64,000 nt of DNA, taken from the NCBI GenBank assembly GCA_947630965.1, contig CANRJO010000002.1:5038-69037 (forward strand), in the 5' to 3' direction. The translations under genes and the position numbers were made by a program. Origin of the DNA: an uncultured Alphaproteobacteria bacterium (lineage in GTDB: Bacteria; Pseudomonadota; Alphaproteobacteria; RF32; CAG-239). Below, piece after piece: positions 7,010 to 54,678 of this stretch. Positions within the stretch are counted from its first letter, which is position 1. Each line of letters opens with the position of its first letter. The notes beneath the pieces are model-generated. The model did no database searches. It worked only from the letters and a program-made list of their open reading frames with translations, and had not been told where the DNA came from.

Positions 7010-7129
7010 ATACGTCACTCTGAGCGGAGCGAAGAGTCCAGGAGGAAAAACGAATCAAATTGTCATGCTGAACTCGTTTCAGCATCTTGTTTATGAGATC
7101 CCGAAACAAGTTCGGGATGACAATAAGGA
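7010..7129. repeat. Composite of small palindromic elements: type F (cgtcactctgagc…agagtccagga) followed by type E (two adjacent hairpins gtcatgctgaaYtcgtttcagcatc and atcccgaaacaagttcgggat)
   Basis: A near-identical E copy is at 24991-25052. F-like copies are at 24935-24973, 37497-37587, 44858-44897 and 62491-62530. Confidence 0.75.
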
Positions 7130-7280
7130 TGAGTTTGTTTTCACCTGGATTCTTCAACCCCTAAAGGGGTTTCAGAATGACGTACAGAGCGGGTTGCAGG
7201 CACCACCCGCCGTTCCACAGGATGACAGAGAGAGTAAAAGAAAAGGCGCCGGGAGGCGCCTTTTCTGAGGAAAGGAAGGA

Positions 7281-8479: not shown

Positions 8480-8635
8480 TTTGTTTTCCTTACGTTTTTA
8501 ACTTTTAATTAACTTTTTAGGCAAAGAAAACCCTTATCTCCCTCTTGTCCACAAGAATCTCTTTCCTAAAACCGGCGGTTTTAAATAGAATCGAGAGGGT
8601 GAGGTGTTTCGGGAATGATAATATGATTCAATTTT

Positions 8636-8675
8636 TCCTGGATCCTTCACTGCGTTCAGGATGACGGAGGGAGGG
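8636..8675. repeat. Short repeat element D (cctggatccttcactgcgttcaggatgacgg)
   Basis: Further copies at 25069-25105 and 25623-25660. Variants at 54483-54520 and 62546-62601. Confidence 0.7.
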
Positions 8676-24579: not shown

Positions 24580-24595
24580 CTGGCAGGGGAATGCG

Positions 24596-24900
24596 TCTAA
24601 TGGACGATTCATCGTTCAAAAAGAGGATTTGAAATTCACGTACGCTTAAGGTCTTACTCGTAAGGGTTGCCAGAAATGGCAACCCTAACTCGTTTCGGTC
24701 ACTTGCTTTGTAAAAGTTGTATCGGTCGTTATCACTTCCTCACAACTTTAACAAAGCTACGCCGCTTGTGGTAAAAACAACCCGTCGGGGTTGTTTTTAT
24801 CCTCGCGCGCTAAAATTCCAAATCCTCTTTTCTCACTTCTACTCGCCTCATTATCCGCATTCCCGCGGACTATGAAAAAAAATAAGAATTAGTTTTTTAT
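24596..24900. repeat. Repeat element C (~300 bp); second copy at 43255-43560
   Basis: Long stretches near-identical to 43255-43560, for example ctaactcgtttcggtcacttgctttgtaaaa… and ttaacaaagctacgccgcttgtggtaaaaacaacccgt.ggggttgtttttatcctcgcg.gctaaaattccaaatcctcttttctcacttctactcgcctcattatccgc. Both copies lie directly after the stop of a +-strand gene (aspS, fabG). Confidence 0.8.
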
Positions 24901-25362
24901 CCTCATTCCCAAGGACTATGAAATAGCCTACTGACGTCATTCTGACGACCGTAGGGAGGAAGAATCCAGGTGGAAATAAATTCATCCTTATTGTCATGCT
25001 GAATTCGTTTCAGCATCTTCCTTATGAGATCCCGAAACAAGTTCGGGATGACATTTTGATTTCTTTTTTCCTGGATCCTTCACTGCGTTCAGGATGATGT
25101 TGTGTGCCTGTTGGCGTCTTGGAAGCAACTTCACGCGTGATGTCATAAAAAAATACTTGCAAAAATCAGATTTTTATTTAACATAAACCCTGCCGTCGTT
25201 GGGCGGTGGTGTTCACAAAACATCTTTACCAACTAAACTCCTTGTTAAGGGGAGTTTCCGATATAAGGCTTTTGCTCGAATAAGGAAAACTGACAGTTGG
25301 CAGTTTTGTGGCTCCCCACCTTTTTTATAAAGGTGGTTTTCTTTAACCTCAAGGAGCTGAAA

Positions 25363-25614
25363 ATGAAAATAAAAAACAAAGATCTGACACTTTACATCAA
25401 AAAAACAATGATGACGCTTTTTCGTGAAGAACGTATTAAAAGGGGCGAAACTCTGGAACAAACGGCGCGTAAAATCAACATTCCGCTTTATGAACTTGAT
25501 TTCTTGGAATGCGGAAGAGGCTGTATTTCTTGGAAAAAAATGATTGATTATTTAGAAATGTACAATAAAACGCTTAAAATTACTTTAGAAGACGACCCCG
25601 ATGAAAGTAGCTAA
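25363..25614 (+). CDS. Small HTH-like protein (putative XRE-type regulator), copy 1
   Basis: Start reassigned to the internal ATG at 25363, preceded by AAGGAG with 7-nt spacing. The segment LFREERIKRGETLEQTARKINIPLYELDFLECG resembles an XRE helix-turn-helix. Confidence 0.5.
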   Translation: MKIKNKDLTLYIKKTMMTLFREERIKRGETLEQTARKINIPLYELDFLECGRGCISWKKMIDYLEMYNKTLKITLEDDPDESS

Positions 25615-25915
25615 TTTGTTGCCCTGGATCCTTCACTGCGTTCAGGATGACGGACGGAGAGGGTTGCCACCATAGCAAGCTAACAATCGCGTGATGTCAT
25701 AAAAAAATACTTGCAAAAATCAGATTTTTATTTAACATAATCTCTGCCGTCGTTGGGCGGTGGTGTTCACAAAACACTTTTCTAGTAAACTCCTTAAATA
25801 AGGGGAGTTTCCGATATAAGGCTTTTGCTCGAATAAGGAAGACTGATTACTAGCAGTTTTGTGGCTCCCCACCTTTTTTATAAAGGTGGTTTTCTTTAAC
25901 CTCAAGGAGCTGAAA

Positions 25916-26176
25916 ATGAAATTAAAAAACAAAGATCTGACACTTTACATCAAAAAAACAATCATGATGCTTTTTCGTGAAGAACGCCTCAAAAGGGGCG
26001 AAACTCTGGAACAAACGGCACGCAAAATTGATATTCCGCTTTATGAACTTGATTTCTTGGAATGTGGGAAAAATTGCCTTTCTTGGCGCAAAATGATTGA
26101 TTATCTAGAGATGTACAATAAAACGCTTAAAATTACTTTAGAAGACGACCCCGATGAAAGTACCAACGACTTTTGA
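25916..26176 (+). CDS. Small HTH-like protein (putative XRE-type regulator), copy 2 (paralog of 25363-25614)
   Basis: Same RBS and start context at 25916. About 85% identical to copy 1. Followed by a hairpin terminator. Confidence 0.5.
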   Translation: MKLKNKDLTLYIKKTIMMLFREERLKRGETLEQTARKIDIPLYELDFLECGKNCLSWRKMIDYLEMYNKTLKITLEDDPDESTNDF

Positions 26177-43215: not shown

Positions 43216-43254
43216 TATCTGCACACGCTATCCACCTTTCCTTCGGTTTTGGAA

Positions 43255-43560
43255 CGCGTCTAATGGGCGATTAATCGTTCAAAAAGAGGATTTGAAATTC
43301 ACGTACCATTAATGGTCTTACTCGTAAGCTTTGCGCTTAACGCAAAGCTAACTCGTTTCGGTCACTTGCTTTGTAAAACCTGCCACGGTCGCTACCGCTC
43401 CCTAGCAGTTTTAACAAAGCTACGCCGCTTGTGGTAAAAACAACCCGTTGGGGTTGTTTTTATCCTCGCGTGCTAAAATTCCAAATCCTCTTTTCTCACT
43501 TCTACTCGCCTCATTATCCGCGTTCCTACGGCTTAGGTGCAAAAAATAAGGATTTTTTTT
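43255..43560. repeat. Repeat element C copy (~300 bp), paired with 24596-24900
   Basis: Near-identical to 24610-24880, including ttaacaaagctacgccgcttgtggtaaaaacaacccgttggggttgtttttatcctcgcgtgctaaaattccaaatcctcttttctcacttctactcgcctcattatccgcg. Confidence 0.8.
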
Positions 43561-43690
43561 ATCCGCGTTCTCGCGGCTTGGGATAAAAATAAGGATTTTT
43601 TTTATCCGCGTTCCCACGGCTTGGGATAAAAATAAGGATTTGTTTTTTATCCGCGTTCCTGCGGCTTGGGGATAAATTATAAAAAGGCAT
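43500..43690. repeat. Tandem array of ~44-bp direct repeats (about four copies) at the 3' edge of element C
   Basis: Unit atccgcgttcNNNcggcttgggataaaaataaggatttttttt occurs at ~43515, 43560, 43603 and 43648. Two degenerate copies are at 24845-24930. Confidence 0.75.
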
Positions 43691-43777: not shown

Positions 43778-44488
43778 TTAGAAAGCGTAGCTTAAACCAG
43801 CCCGCACGCCATTATAAACTTGCGCTCTCGTTTGGTTATCTATCATGGGGTTGTTGGGATTGCGGTTGTATGTAGGACGTTTCACATCAGCCGTGTTTCC
43901 GGAGAATTGGTATGCAGCAAAAACACCAACGTTTTCCGTCACATCATAACGAAGACCGATTTCAGCTGAATAAGCCAATCCCCAAGCAGAATCGTCCACT
44001 TTTGTATTGTAAAACTCATCTGGTGCGTCTGATTGTGTTGACTTGTATTTCAGGTAAGCAACGCCCGCATTTACACCGGCAAAAGCTTTGAGCTTGTCTT
44101 GATAGACAGGTATGCTATAACGATATCCCGGCATGATGCTGAACAATTCAACTTTGTCTTTAACGCTAGTTGCTTCTCCATCGATATTGATTGAATCATC
44201 ACCTGCGGCGTATCCGAAACGCAATGTTAAAGCTTGCTTATCCGTTAAATTATAAACGCCCGTGACATCTGCCGAAATAAGATCAACTTTAGGCATTGAC
44301 AAGTTTGAACGATAAATATTTTCACCATTGCTTGCCATCGGTGATTTCTGAAATTCTCTGGCGGCAAATTGATAACCACCGGCTAATTCCACAGACCATG
44401 GATTTGTTGTTACAGAATTTGCTTGCGCAGTTGCGGCAGAAGTGACAATCGCCACGAAGGCTGTTGTTAATAAAAGATTGTTTTTCAT
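43778..44488 (-). CDS. Outer-membrane beta-barrel protein (OmpA/OmpW-like small OMP)
   Basis: Start reassigned to the ATG at 44488 (MKNNLLLTTAFVAIVTSAATAQA signal peptide) with a GAAAGG RBS. The track starts at an upstream TTG. Alternating amphipathic strands and a C-terminal …GLSYAF aromatic terminus. Confidence 0.6.
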   Translation of the reverse strand: MKNNLLLTTAFVAIVTSAATAQANSVTTNPWSVELAGGYQFAAREFQKSPMASNGENIYRSNLSMPKVDLISADVTGVYNLTDKQALTLRFGYAAGDDSINIDGEATSVKDKVELFSIMPGYRYSIPVYQDKLKAFAGVNAGVAYLKYKSTQSDAPDEFYNTKVDDSAWGLAYSAEIGLRYDVTENVGVFAAYQFSGNTADVKRPTYNRNPNNPMIDNQTRAQVYNGVRAGLSYAF

Positions 44489-44830
44489 ATGATAGAACCT
44501 TTCTTTTTTCAATTGTTAAAAAGAAAACCACCTCAAAAGGTGGCCGGAGAGTTCAACAATCATATTACTCAAAATGATTCCTTTAGCCTTTAAAGCCATA
44601 TCAGTATGTCTTCTGGACATTCGCTAAAAGCTCCCCGACCATATGAATATGAATCGGGGATATATCTACTGTCAGCTAAAATTCATAGCTGACAATATGA
44701 CGACATTATATCCTAACGCCGTGAGTAATATTGAGCCGTTGAAAGCTCCGTACCTCTTGGGTACTAAGCATAAAAACTTTTTATGCCTGAAAGTACTGTA
44801 AGATATTATTTAGCGAAATGCAAGGAAAAA
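44489..44830 (-). promoter_or_regulatory. Conserved ~300-nt structured 5' leader of the OMP gene, paralogous to 54111-54430
   Basis: About 90% identical to the leader of the autotransporter gene. Contains several hairpins (tgtcagctatgaattttagctgaca; tccccgattcatattcatatggtcgggga; ccaccttttgaggtgg followed by ttttcttttt). Confidence 0.6.
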
Positions 44831-51065: not shown

Positions 51066-54000
51066 CTAGAACTTGTATTTGGCTGAGAGAATGCCGCTAT
51101 GATCTTCGAAATCTTTGCGGAACTTGCCTTCATAGCCGGCGGAAATATCCCAACTTTCGTTCAAGGAAGCTGTTAAGCCAACACCGGCTTCAACGCCAAA
51201 GCGTTCTAAGCTCTCGCCTTCAACCCGGTAGGAGCTGCTACCGACATTGACAACGGCGCTGTTATCGCCATCCATCAAGTCGTAGGTCACGCCCAAGCGT
51301 GCTTCAGGACGGAGGCTGATGCCGTTGTCAAACGCCACTTCTTTGGACGCTTTCACATCGGCAACCGCGGTCAAGATGTCTTGATCTTCGGCTTTCACAC
51401 GCTGACCTGCCGTGTCTGTGTAGGCTTCCTGATCAAGGTGTGCATAACGCAAACCAATTTCAGGTGTCACGTTCACGCTGCCTGCCAAGGCTTCATAGCC
51501 TGTCATAGCTTGCAAGCCGAAGACATCAACGTCATACTTGCCGCTGAAACCGCCTAACAAGCTGCTCTTCTTTTCTTTGTACTTAGACATACCATAAGAA
51601 GCAATGCCGTTGACATACCAGTTGCTCGGCTTATATTCGCCATAAAGCATAAAGGTGTGCGAATCGACATCAATATCGCGGTGATGACCGTCAATTTCCG
51701 TATCGCCATAAGCATAAGCAACACCGAGTTTCACGTTATCTGCCACTTCATGATGTGCACCAAAAGCAACGCCTTTTGTCTTGGCATCAAAACCTTTTGC
51801 CTCAGACATATCGTCAACGGTGGACTTGTTAAACAAAGCTTTCACCCAAACAACAGCCTTGTCAAACACGCCGTCGCCCGAAGATTTTCCGGCGGAAGCT
51901 GTGTCAATGCTGTTGGTGCTCAAGTTTGCGCTTACAGCGCCATAGGCGTGAGCCAATTGGTTGGTTTCAACTGTTTGAACGACAGGTGCGAAAGCCGGCG
52001 CCACGTCTTCAGCAAGTGCGGCAACGGTGTTTACATCGTGCTTTTGCAGATGTTCATACATGAAATCATGAATCTCTTTGGCTTTGCCATCCAGATTTTT
52101 CTCTAAGGCGAAAGCGCTCATCGCATTGGAAGCGTTTTCACCCGCACCGGCTTCTTGAGCTTTGGAAGCAATTCTTTCCGCCGAGTTCTTTGAGGCAACG
52201 ACTTGATTGCCTTCAACATTCAAATCATAAAGAACGTTTTCAGCGTGAAGTTTGCTCTTCTCGCCTTTCAAGAGTTCGTCTGTTACGACCTTGCCAAAGT
52301 TAAGCGCTTGGCCATCAATGACGTCACCGGCTTCTTCAGTAACATAAAAGTCAAGTGTGGCATTGCCATTTACGGTTAAATTGGCATAATCATCTTCATC
52401 GGATCTGATTTTACCGTTCACAAGAATGTCATTGTCAGCTTTTTCAACATCAACATGTAAGACGGAGCCATCCTTTAACGTTACGGCGCTGTCATATGTA
52501 CTTGTGCCTAGGTCAAGTGTGCCTGCAACGGCTGTTTTGGCAATGTCGTAATATGCGTCATCCACATGGAGCGTGGCATCCTTTTGGATTACAACTTTAT
52601 TGGCCGTGAATAGTTTTGTATTGTCTAGTGTGAACTCATGGCCGCCTGTGACAGTCATTCTCTTAAGCTCTGCTTTGCCACCAAAGAGACTGCCTGATGA
52701 GGTGTCGGCATTGATGTTTAAGTCTTTCAACAACCCACCTTCTGCAGTTTCCTGAATGGATTTAATTTTAGCTTCGGCTGAGTTGACGTTGATTGTGCCG
52801 ACATTTTCACCACCTATGATGCCGTCAATCTCGCCTTCAAGGTTTATAACAGCATCTTCATCATCCAATGTGAACGTTGATTTATTGATCGATTTCATCA
52901 CGCCGCCTTTTTTGACATTAATGGTGGCATTTTCAATGAACATATTGCCTTTATCATTCTTAGCTGTTCCGTCGCCTAAGGCGCCTTGTAGAAGCATACC
53001 GCCATCATCAATGGTAACCTCGGCACCATCGATTGTGTTTTCATCATCATAACCTGCAATATAGGCTTTGTTGCCATCGGCATCAGTGCCACCAATGTAA
53101 ACTTTAGTACGAATGATGCCTTTATCATCCGTATCGCCGTCAATCGTAAAATCAACGGCATCAATATTGGCGCCGTTCTTGACGGAAATGGTGTCGAGAT
53201 CATTTAGGAGAATTGTACCGCTTTCAACAGAGGCATCGTTATTATCATGTGTGTGAACGGCCACAATTCTTGCGCCATTTTCCAAGCTTATATTGCCACC
53301 ATCAACAGTAATGGTAAAATCTTCATCTCCTTTTGCTCTCTCAGTACTCTCTGTATGTGTGTCTCGACCTAACCAGCCACCATCAGAGTGATAATTTATG
53401 TTTTTCAATTCTAAATTATAAGAAGCAACCACTTTACCTTTATTTTCAATATTGGCGCCGTTCCCTTGACCTGTAATAATGAGGGGAGCAAGGCCCACAT
53501 ATTTTTGATCATCCGTGGTATTTGTCCCGTTACCGCCGTAAATCAGGTGGTCACCTTCTTCAAAGGTCAACGTTTTGTTTTCTGAAATATCTAAATAATG
53601 AGCAGTACCGTTTTTGGGTTTATTATTATACAAATAAATGTTGGTGCCATCTGCCATTTCGACATTGCCGACTGTCAGAGGCTTTCCTTTCTCTTCATTA
53701 TTTGGGTTTGAATTTTGACCAATAATAAGCTCACCTTCCGTAATGCCGGAAGTGCCTTTTTCAATCCGGAGATCAATGCCGCTTAAGTCAACACCTTTAA
53801 GGTCTTTCCACTTTTCTACGCCGGATTTAATACCGTCAACGGTTAAATAACCTTGCACGGTCATTTTATGTCCGCCTGTTAATTTTGAGCCATCATGAAC
53901 TGTAACCCAATGCCCTAACGTGACATCGTTTTCTACCTTAACGTCTTCACCGTTAATGTTAATGCGCGCACTTGAACTGTCGTGACTTGTTACATCACTT

Positions 54001-54110
54001 TCAACAATCAATGATGTGTAGTCATTCTTTGCAGCTTCTTCTGCTTGCGCATTTGAAACCGCAAAGGCGACACTCACGAGCGCTGTTGTTAATAAAAGAT
54101 TATTCTTCAT
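51066..54110 (-). CDS. Autotransporter (type Va) outer-membrane protein with a beta-helical passenger
   Basis: Signal peptide MKNNLLLTTALVSVAFAVSNAQA. A long Gly/Asn/Asp-rich passenger with repetitive beta-strand motifs. A C-terminal ~280-aa beta-barrel ending …LSAKYKF. Confidence 0.75.
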   Translation of the reverse strand: MKNNLLLTTALVSVAFAVSNAQAEEAAKNDYTSLIVESDVTSHDSSSARININGEDVKVENDVTLGHWVTVHDGSKLTGGHKMTVQGYLTVDGIKSGVEKWKDLKGVDLSGIDLRIEKGTSGITEGELIIGQNSNPNNEEKGKPLTVGNVEMADGTNIYLYNNKPKNGTAHYLDISENKTLTFEEGDHLIYGGNGTNTTDDQKYVGLAPLIITGQGNGANIENKGKVVASYNLELKNINYHSDGGWLGRDTHTESTERAKGDEDFTITVDGGNISLENGARIVAVHTHDNNDASVESGTILLNDLDTISVKNGANIDAVDFTIDGDTDDKGIIRTKVYIGGTDADGNKAYIAGYDDENTIDGAEVTIDDGGMLLQGALGDGTAKNDKGNMFIENATINVKKGGVMKSINKSTFTLDDEDAVINLEGEIDGIIGGENVGTINVNSAEAKIKSIQETAEGGLLKDLNINADTSSGSLFGGKAELKRMTVTGGHEFTLDNTKLFTANKVVIQKDATLHVDDAYYDIAKTAVAGTLDLGTSTYDSAVTLKDGSVLHVDVEKADNDILVNGKIRSDEDDYANLTVNGNATLDFYVTEEAGDVIDGQALNFGKVVTDELLKGEKSKLHAENVLYDLNVEGNQVVASKNSAERIASKAQEAGAGENASNAMSAFALEKNLDGKAKEIHDFMYEHLQKHDVNTVAALAEDVAPAFAPVVQTVETNQLAHAYGAVSANLSTNSIDTASAGKSSGDGVFDKAVVWVKALFNKSTVDDMSEAKGFDAKTKGVAFGAHHEVADNVKLGVAYAYGDTEIDGHHRDIDVDSHTFMLYGEYKPSNWYVNGIASYGMSKYKEKKSSLLGGFSGKYDVDVFGLQAMTGYEALAGSVNVTPEIGLRYAHLDQEAYTDTAGQRVKAEDQDILTAVADVKASKEVAFDNGISLRPEARLGVTYDLMDGDNSAVVNVGSSSYRVEGESLERFGVEAGVGLTASLNESWDISAGYEGKFRKDFEDHSGILSAKYKF

Positions 54111-54430
54111 ATGATTGAACCTTTCTTTTTAATCAATTGTTAAAAGAAAACCACCTAAAGGTGGCCGGAGAGTTCAACAATCATACATCAGTAAATGATT
54201 CTTTTAGCCTTTCAGCCTAAGCTTTGGACATTCGCTAAAAGCTCCCCGACCATATGAATATGAATCGGGGATATATCTACTGCCGGCTAAAATTCATAGC
54301 TGACAATATGACGACATTATATCCTAACGCCGACTGATGTTGAGCCGTTGAAAGCTCCGTACCTCTTGGGTACTAAGCATGAAAAAAGCTCCATGCCTGA
54401 AGGTACTGTAGGATATTATTTTAGAAAATG
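54111..54430 (-). promoter_or_regulatory. Conserved ~300-nt structured 5' leader of the autotransporter gene, paralogous to 44489-44830
   Basis: Near-identical to 44513-44820, including the leader hairpin ccacctttaggtgg followed by ttttctttt about 35 nt upstream of the ATG. Confidence 0.6.
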
Positions 54431-54678
54431 CAAGGGGAAAATTTAGGGAATGTGCATGATGAGTAATTAGCTATGTTTTTTGTCCTGGATCTTTCACTTC
54501 GTTCAAGATGACGTACCGAGGCAGCCGCTCCTTTCTTATCCAAGTTTCGACAAGGTGGAGAACCGTTTAGATAGAGTGAAAAATAAAGCGGTAAAAATTC
54601 TAGCGTACTAAAAAAGGTACATGAATTTTGCGAGACCCGAAAAAACGGCTTTAGATGCGCCGCTATACGTCTTTCCAC

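Follow-up and report, generated by a model that had tools for sequence, protein, structure and literature searches.

Probable intrinsic terminators as the final helix of two structured leader RNAs before helix-turn-helix and surface-protein genes in an uncultured alphaproteobacterium

A 64,000-nt stretch of DNA from an uncultured Alphaproteobacteria bacterium (GenBank assembly GCA_947630965.1, contig CANRJO010000002.1, positions 5,038 to 69,037; the whole of this stretch is called the window) carries a short hairpin followed by a U-tract upstream of four genes, namely two putative small helix-turn-helix (HTH) genes, a beta-barrel outer-membrane protein (OMP) gene and an autotransporter gene. 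An earlier note, made from the letters of the window, had drawn attention to this hairpin; a point beyond that note is that each hairpin forms the final helix of a long, conserved and highly structured RNA. By its features each hairpin is a canonical Rho-independent (intrinsic) terminator with a U-tract, and two structured 5' leader RNAs, called leader A (HTH genes) and leader B (surface-protein genes), probably use it as their expression platform. From sequence, conservation and folds we infer the transcript ends, termination itself and an antiterminator switch.

Terminator features of the hairpin

An exact search of the window for CCACCT-N(1-12)-AGGTGGTTTTCTTT returned four sites, at 25316-25344 and 25869-25897 on the plus strand and at 44520-44543 and 54143-54164 on the minus strand, and the pattern was matched in 0 of 100 dinucleotide-preserving shuffles of the window. 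The motif quoted in the earlier note, CCACCT-loop-AGGTGG-TTTTCTTT, was correct in sequence and is present four times; the coordinates given for it were off by about 8-10 nt at some sites. The note had also counted four genes of two unrelated families. The four sites stand, but they count as no more than two independent cases: the two HTH units form a tandem duplication (553 nt, 91-96% identity), and the leaders of the OMP and autotransporter genes are paralogues (about 330 nt of upstream DNA and the signal peptide in common, approximately 87% identity).

All four sites were terminator-like in a consensus scan, with stems of 7-8 bp, four G-C pairs, loops of 4-5 nt and tails of UUUUCUUU(U). Energies of the isolated hairpins were -11.0, -10.7 and -9.4 kcal/mol (z = -2.6 to -3.6), weaker than those of two gene-end terminators of the window (-13.9 and -17.4 kcal/mol). 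Each terminator closes the 3' end of a structured leader with its own promoter and is separated from the start codon by 18-35 nt. All four leaders have a conserved sigma70-type promoter some 150-270 nt ahead of the terminator, and a scan of all sites found no promoter-like site between terminator and start codon. The proposal that hairpin and U-tract form an intrinsic-terminator-like element within a 5' leader, in the layout of an attenuator, is upheld; the attenuator reading as a whole is supported in part.

In stem length, number of G-C pairs, loop length and U-rich tail the hairpins are like ordinary Rho-independent terminators. They differ in lying between a promoter and the following gene and not after a gene. 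Their stem sequence is also the same in diverged homologues, whereas other helices within the RNA show free covariation. The hairpin motif is not unique in itself, because the tail TTTTCTTT is common among the terminator-like sites of the window and because, among the matches listed in a genome-wide pattern scan, more than 100 unrelated genomes have the same pattern as an ordinary terminator (the matches were mostly unrelated Firmicutes and Bacteroidota terminators, with at least 16 relevant loci). What needs explanation is the context of the hairpin and its identity across families, not the motif as such: by itself an ordinary terminator, it is yet the visible tip of two conserved structured RNAs without an earlier catalogue entry.

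The two leader families and their common 3' module

Leader B lies on the minus strand in both copies of the window. For the OMP copy, the promoter (44795-44823) consists of a -35 element TTGCAT (44823-44818), a 17-nt spacer and a -10 element TACAGT (44800-44795), and is followed by a leader of approximately 270 nt (44518-44789) whose terminator pairs CCACCU (44543-44538) with AGGUGG (44533-44528) ahead of a U-tract at 44527-44518. The gene behind it (43778-44488, 236 aa; Shine-Dalgarno (SD) sequence AGAAAGG at 44504-44498) encodes a beta-barrel outer-membrane protein (Pfam OMP_b-brl, E = 2.8e-9). For the autotransporter copy, the promoter is at 54405-54433 (-35 TTGCAT, 54433-54428; -10 TACAGT, 54410-54405), the leader of approximately 258 nt at 54142-54399, the terminator stem at 54164-54159 (CCACCU) and 54156-54151 (AGGUGG) and the U-tract at 54150-54142; the gene (51066-54110, 1014 aa; SD AGAAAGG at 54126-54120) has a Pfam Autotransporter beta-domain (E = 9.3e-47). 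In homologues the promoter hexamers and the 17-nt spacing are kept and the spacer sequence is variable.

The leader B fold begins with a variable 5' hairpin (P1) and a hairpin P2 pairing GUACC with GGUAC (44764-44760 with 44754-44750 in the OMP copy; 54373-54369 with 54363-54359 in the autotransporter copy), continues with a two-tier long-range closing helix of about 20 bp (P3/P4) that encloses P5-P9, and ends in the terminator. The OMP copy has a minimum free energy of -102.6 kcal/mol (z = -8.26). In an alignment of 16 leader B sequences, RNAalifold gave 88 pairs in 11 helices, 33 of the pairs with compensatory changes; by an independent count 97.5% of the cells can pair, compared with 41-51% after a shift of the partners by 1-3 columns, and none of five measures of pairing was reached in any of 500 shuffles. 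Leader B DNA is 68-78% identical in at least 13 loci of metagenome-assembled genomes (MAGs) of gut Alphaproteobacteria and in five human-gut contigs, and when the whole window was compared with homologous loci by BLAST, leader B was nearly the only alignable part and the flanks mostly could not be aligned. Proteins of the window have exact matches only in metagenome assemblies and on a single NCBI contig of 81.5 kb. The loci with homologous leaders belong to uncultured gut MAGs labelled 'Alphaproteobacteria bacterium', to 'Candidatus Scatocola' and 'Acetobacter sp. 46_36', and to human-gut contigs.

The genes that follow leader B vary by copy and comprise autotransporters, an OMP, lipoproteins of 131-132 aa and a 307-aa protein. 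Because the downstream genes differ between copies, leader B is the conserved unit. Rfam 15 contained no family that matched the leaders at its gathering threshold or with a meaningful E-value (the window yielded two tRNAs only; L075, L043, L041 and L058, four of the homologous loci, were also searched). The best score below threshold was that of PyrR (20-22 bits against a cutoff of 54) and was set aside as noise, as were weak matches to Phe-leader and small RNA (sRNA) families. A literature search found no description of a leader B RNA family. Leader B is apparently an undescribed structured RNA family before autotransporter, OMP and lipoprotein genes of gut Alphaproteobacteria, and its covariation support exceeds that of many accepted Rfam families.

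Several further observations were made on leader B. Helix P4 (alignment columns 122-129 with 308-315; approximately 44732-44723 with 44577-44568) differs in almost every copy and is fully paired in all, with compensatory changes in seven of its eight pairs, and it differs even between paralogues of one genome (the OMP and autotransporter copies of the window; L209AT and L209b); it behaves like a copy-specific 'barcode' helix. A short open reading frame within the leader, at 44643-44602 and 54254-54213 on the minus strand (MVGELLANVQKTY and MVGELLANVQSLG), begins MVGELLANVQ. Its first ten codons are conserved, it has no SD sequence, its length is 13-22 codons and L008 has TTG in place of its ATG. 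The frame is unlikely to encode a leader peptide, and a leader-peptide model was dropped for want of an SD sequence and of a conserved ATG. A T-box, or pairing of UGGU with tRNA ends, was likewise dropped after no Rfam T-box match was obtained. The U-tract of leader B is complementary to the purine-rich SD region downstream of it (helix 11; alignment columns 360-391; 44527-44498 and 54150-54120, minus strand); this helix is 94.6% paired with mostly one-sided changes, and in read-through transcripts it may mask the SD sequence weakly or may reflect mere base composition. One contig, CAVDQP010000037.1, is labelled as the Firmicute Holdemanella biformis, yet carries an alphaproteobacterial leader B and autotransporter gene, and is probably a binning contaminant.

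Leader A lies on the plus strand. The promoter of the first copy (25157-25184) has a -35 element TTGCAA (25157-25162), a 16-nt spacer and a -10 element TAACAT (25179-25184); it is identical in the second copy and kept in the relatives L126 and L127, and relatives of the L075 type have TTGCAA-N16-TATAAT at the same place. The predicted leader of approximately 154 nt (25191-25344), which resembles in layout the Brt RNAs of Bartonella discussed below, was derived from per-sequence folding and an alignment of leader A sequences. Its first element is a 5' hairpin; a closing helix (25214-25221 with 25303-25310) then encloses a multi-branch domain that includes a GGGGAG hairpin (25249-25254), and the terminator comes last. 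The minimum free energy is -49.4 kcal/mol (z = -2.8). A GGUGG copy of the terminator 3' arm, a candidate antiterminator strand, is at 25205-25209 and overlaps the 3' arm of the 5' hairpin. The terminator (25316-25344, -11.0 kcal/mol) pairs CCACCUUU (25316-25323) with AAAGGUGG (25329-25336) around a UUUAU loop and ends in the U-tract UUUUCUUU (25337-25344). The first putative HTH gene follows at 25363-25614 (83 aa; SD AAGGAG at 25351-25356). The tandem copy (25711-25897) has its promoter at 25711-25716 and 25733-25738, leader A at approximately 25745-25897, GGUGG at 25759-25763, the terminator stem at 25869-25889 and the U-tract at 25890-25897, and precedes the second putative HTH gene (25916-26176, 86 aa, 88% identical to the first).

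The 83- and 86-aa proteins are weakly HTH-like. A Pfam match to HTH_25 (E = 0.0048) was below the cutoff, hhalign placed the protein on a Trp-like XRE protein in the HTH register (E = 0.014), and an AlphaFold model of low confidence (pLDDT 57) had helices at residues 31-37 and 42-48; BLASTP gave no alignment with the Trp-type XRE protein. Relatives of leader A fall into three subtypes: the window type (L123, L126-128), the L075 type of approximately 230 nt (L075, L100, L217, L219, L220) and the L043 type. In the subtypes examined, a small HTH gene always begins within about 20 nt after the leader. MAFFT aligned the three subtypes poorly and gave no global RNAalifold consensus, so that per-sequence folds were used. 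An alignment of leader A sequences showed a common core, (G)GGGA..AUA(A)GGCUU..CGAAUAA..CAGUUU..UCCCCACCUUUU..AAAGGUGGUUUUCUUU, and the subtypes have the same architecture with closing helices of differing sequence (CACAAAAC/GUUUUGUG, UAACAAAC/GUUUGUUA, UUCAAAAAC/GUUUUUGAA and AUUAACAA/UUGUUAAU).

The two leaders have a module of approximately 45 nt at the 3' end in common, made up of the 3' strand of the closing helix (..UUGAAC), a CUCC linker, the CCACCU stem, the loop, AGGUGG and UUUUCUUU. Local alignment of leaders A and B of the window scored 31, compared with 17-18 for shuffles (standard deviation 2.6, maximum 29-30), and those of MAG SIG43 scored 42 over 48 columns, compared with 19.6 +/- 2.4; upstream of the module no similarity between leaders A and B was detected. 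Judged from these alignments, the cross-family resemblance is beyond chance. Both families occur with this hairpin in three genomes, namely that of the window, MAG RGIG5458 (L075 and L097) and MAG SIG43 (L100 and L058). Copies retrieved without requiring the hairpin, by leader similarity (L209b), by protein (L217, L219, L220, L126-128) or by the P5 core in a viral scan (L221, a further copy of leader B), keep the CCACC/GGUGG stem, and their loops, tails and other helices vary. At the level of sequence the module may have become common to both leaders through descent or through a common constraint. The suggestion in the earlier note of a common regulatory device is a fair reading, in that the whole module of about 45 nt, not the stem alone, is common to both leaders and recurs in other genomes. 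Plasmid collections contained no match to the leaders.

Some features of the surrounding DNA touch on the leaders. The first HTH gene has no terminator of its own (25614-25869), and transcripts reading through leader 1 and gene 1 would continue into leader 2 as far as its hairpin, which could couple the tandem units. A dispersed repeat resembling repetitive extragenic palindromes or miniature inverted-repeat transposable elements (MITEs) and containing CCTGGATCCTTCACTGCGTTCAGGATGA is present at 24934-25100, 7012-7183 (both orientations), 8608-8664, 25623-25650 and 54478-54514. The promoters of both HTH leaders and that of the autotransporter leader each have a copy shortly upstream; the one next to the autotransporter leader is on the plus strand, opposite to that leader. 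A non-coding element of approximately 320 nt occurs twice on the plus strand with 86% identity, at 24588-24908 after aspS and at 43251-43570 after a fabG-like gene, with a terminator-like hairpin CAACCC-gtYg-GGGTTG-TTTTTATC at 24778-24793 and 43441-43456, which in the first copy is flanked by internal 18-nt inverted repeats (24619-24636 and 24814-24831); no Rfam family matched it, and it could be a further sRNA gene or a MITE-like element. Finally, the minus strand of a prophage-like contig of high G+C content (IMGVR_UViG_2848865092_000001, 66% G+C) contains a leader A core, AUAAGGCUU-N3-CCGAAUAA, in the region around position 640 (approximately 170 nt before and 120 nt after it); a possible phage regulator gene lies downstream. 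A CUCCC/GGGAG hairpin precedes this core and ..UUCGAACCUCCCGCC-gccag-GGUGGG, without a U-tract, follows it; the contig may carry a remote homologue of leader A, or the resemblance may be due to chance.

Comparison of leader A with the Bartonella Brt/Trp system

In Bartonella henselae there are nine Brt RNAs of 194-203 nt, and each is followed after 10-18 nt by an XRE gene (trp) without a promoter. The RNAs rank with the most abundant transcripts of the organism, in contrast to very low transcription of the trp genes (Tu et al. 2016, PMC5387305). The 3' stem-loop of the Brt RNAs was proposed as a terminator or riboswitch, and a role in trans was proposed as well (PMC5387305). Deletion of the 3' stem-loop of Brt1 raised trp1 transcription, read-through of Brt1 responded to heme, and Trp1 and Trp3 bind upstream of the autotransporter adhesin gene badA (review, PMC8070961).

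The layout of leader A is like that of Brt/Trp in several respects. Both comprise a structured RNA from its own promoter with a terminal stem-loop shortly before a promoterless small HTH gene (10-18 nt in Brt/Trp; in the first leader A an 18-nt gap between the end of the U-tract at 25344 and the ATG at 25363, with the same placement in L075, L100, L217, L219, L220 and L043). Both are multi-copy and tandem, and in both a multi-branch core is enclosed by a long closing helix whose 3' end abuts the 5' arm of the terminator. In Brt1, as in leader A, an upstream hairpin arm is complementary to the terminator 5' arm (UUCCGGGG with CCCCGGAA). The XRE proteins encoded after leaders of the L075/L100 type are 33-34% identical, and that after L043 36% identical, to the Trp-type XRE protein of B. 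grahamii pBGR3, and a single profile retrieves these proteins together with the Bartonella Trps.

There are also differences. Brt1-9 are 74-100% identical to one another, whereas leader A shows no detectable similarity to Brt1 or to the copy on pBGR3. As a control, Brt1 (upstream of a 118-aa B. henselae XRE protein) and the pBGR3 copy were 76% identical over 195 nt, and the leaders of the window had no similarity to either by blastn (word size 7) or nhmmer, nor any match on the pBGR3 plasmid. Membership of leader A in the Brt family was rejected on these grounds, on length (approximately 154 nt compared with 194-203 nt) and on host, which is not Bartonella: the window has 43.8% G+C and its relatives are uncultured gut Alphaproteobacteria. 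The Brt terminator reads CCCCGG...CCGGUGGGG with a poor U-tract, unlike that of leader A, and the HTH protein of the window is only weakly XRE-like. Proteins encoded after leaders of the L075/L100 type fall in the Trp clade. The Brt1 3' stem-loop is an experimentally shown attenuator, in a system linked to control of an autotransporter adhesin. By analogy, leader A may be regarded as a functional counterpart of the Brt RNA/Trp regulator pair.

A candidate antitermination switch and its alternatives

The mechanism proposed for both leaders is as follows. Each leader would be transcribed from its own sigma70-type promoter and fold into a multi-helix domain closed by a long-range helix, the 3' strand of which would run through the CUCC linker directly into the terminator. 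Because no promoter lies between terminator and gene, expression of the gene would depend on read-through by RNA polymerase, and each termination event would yield a short stable leader RNA of approximately 154 nt (A) or 260-270 nt (B). In this model polymerase reads through once the terminator 5' arm has paired with an upstream copy of the 3' arm, a pairing that lengthens the closing helix. The capturing strand would be GUGGUACGGGG or AGGU(A/G) in leader B, otherwise locked in P2, and GGUGG at 25205-25209 in leader A, otherwise locked in the 5' hairpin. P2 or the 5' hairpin would then serve as anti-antiterminator and the extended closing helix as antiterminator, with the terminator as third element, and the constraint of three-way pairing would explain why the stem cannot drift.

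Transcripts were folded in silico after being cut just before the terminator 3' arm. In 16 of 16 cut leader B transcripts, the 5' arm and linker (CUCCGRCCAC) paired with the P2 3' arm and the adjoining G-run (GUGGUACGGGG in general, AGGUG..GAGAG in two copies, AGGUACGGAG in the window) and extended P3; this antiterminator helix is 93.7% paired in the alignment, compared with 40-58% when slid. In cut leader A transcripts of the window type, CCACC paired with the GGUGG copy as an extension of the closing helix in both window copies and in L127, and in L126 the corresponding strand reads GGUGA and pairs over 4 bp. A second antiterminator candidate, GGGGAG with CUCCCC in leader A or GGUCGGGGAG with CUCUCCGRCC in leader B, was kept only as such because the folds of the cut transcripts prefer the model with the P2 arm. 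The arrangement is like that of riboswitches and of protein- or tRNA-dependent attenuators (PyrR, T-box), with an intrinsic terminator in a 5' leader, an upstream strand able to pair with its 5' arm, a hairpin able to lock that strand and a large conserved structured domain upstream. It is unlike them in matching no Rfam family at threshold and in preceding genes for surface proteins and regulators; because these are not a metabolic pathway, they suggest no ligand.

A number of observations weigh against a regulated switch of this kind. The antiterminator shows no compensatory double changes, as its partner strand in the terminator is invariant, and the competing complementarity of leader B, GGUCGGGGAG with CUCUCCGRCC, is 100% paired, likewise without compensatory changes. 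In most copies the equilibrium favours the terminator state by 4-12 kcal/mol (in the OMP copy of the window by just -1.1 kcal/mol, with a terminator probability of 0.73). Most homologues were retrieved by way of the exact hairpin pattern, so that the invariance of the stem is in part an ascertainment bias. No ligand, protein or sRNA sensor was found for the leaders, and termination and read-through in these organisms are themselves predictions. In leader A of the L075 and L043 types the terminator 5' arm was unpaired in the cut-transcript folds, which suggests that termination in these subtypes may be constitutive.

That last result and the favoured terminator state in nearly all copies are also what would be seen if the leaders were stand-alone genes of trans-acting sRNAs with constitutive terminators, the genes behind them receiving leak-through with no regulated switch. 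Such RNAs might act, for example, through pairing of the CU-rich segment CUCCCCACCU / CUCUCCGRCCACCU with SD-like sequences, and the Brt RNAs, abundant beside barely transcribed trp genes and with a proposed role in trans, would be a precedent (PMC5387305, PMC8070961). Yet the downstream genes have no promoter of their own and always begin within 18-35 nt, and the leader is kept before very different genes, as control in cis predicts. RNAduplex energies of full-length leader A with leader B, a crude measure, were within the shuffled range; pairing in trans between the two leaders was set aside on this result, which is uninformative. We regard this explanation as rather unlikely on its own; it is compatible with a terminator-based switch, as Brt1 was proposed to do both. 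Coincidence, that is, unrelated leaders ending in ordinary terminators with the same 6-bp stem, appears improbable. The generic use of the pattern in more than 100 unrelated genomes among the matches listed, the common tail TTTTCTTT in the window and the lack of similarity upstream of the module would all fit it, and with some 25 distinct terminator-like sites in the window a GC-rich stem of 5-6 bp found post hoc to be shared is, by our estimate, not very improbable. However, the resemblance extends over approximately 45 nt including the UUGAAC closing-helix strand and the CUCC linker (42 compared with 19.6 +/- 2.4), is found again in three genomes, although their leaders are elsewhere about 70-78% identical, and occupies the same structural position in both leaders.

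The remaining explanations do not involve termination. AGGUG can pair with the 3' end of 16S rRNA, and the earlier note had offered as an alternative that AGGUGG is an SD sequence sequestered by an anti-SD mimic, CCACCU. The complementarity of the leader B U-tract to the true SD region (helix 11, 94.6% paired) might be taken in favour of such translational control, but no start codon follows AGGUGG within 5-10 nt, the true SD sequences (25351-25356, 44504-44498 and 54126-54120) are 15-25 nt downstream, outside the hairpin and unpaired with CCACCU, and the U-tract after the stem is a signature of termination. The SD alternative was discarded as very improbable. Equally hard to credit is a DNA operator, in which CCACCT/AGGTGG would bind a dimeric regulator such as the neighbouring HTH protein and place the OMP and autotransporter genes in its regulon. 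XRE-type regulators do bind palindromes, the repeat precedes both regulator and surface-protein genes, and Bartonella Trp1 and Trp3 bind upstream of badA (PMC8070961); however, among homologues the half-sites are 2 to 13 nt apart but stem and U-tract are fixed, which fits an RNA hairpin and not an operator of fixed geometry, and the site is located 150-270 nt downstream of the promoter.

A terminator-based expression platform at the end of both leaders is the reading we prefer. A bolder version is put forward as tentative and rather doubtful: leader B may be a new large RNA (approximately 270 nt, 11 helices), riboswitch-like or acting in factor-dependent antitermination, that gates autotransporter, OMP and lipoprotein genes in uncultured gut Alphaproteobacteria and shares its platform of about 45 nt with a Brt-like RNA. 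If this were true, a single trans-acting signal (ligand, protein or RNA) would co-control regulators and surface proteins, a testable idea that the common 3' module itself raises, and the 'genus-specific' Bartonella circuit of Brt, Trp and adhesin would extend to a much wider group of host-associated Alphaproteobacteria. Leader A suggests that counterparts of the Brt/Trp module of RNA plus regulator, reported as specific to Bartonella, exist in other host-associated Alphaproteobacteria, and leader B offers a concrete, testable handle on the control of the cell surface in gut Alphaproteobacteria that have never been cultured.

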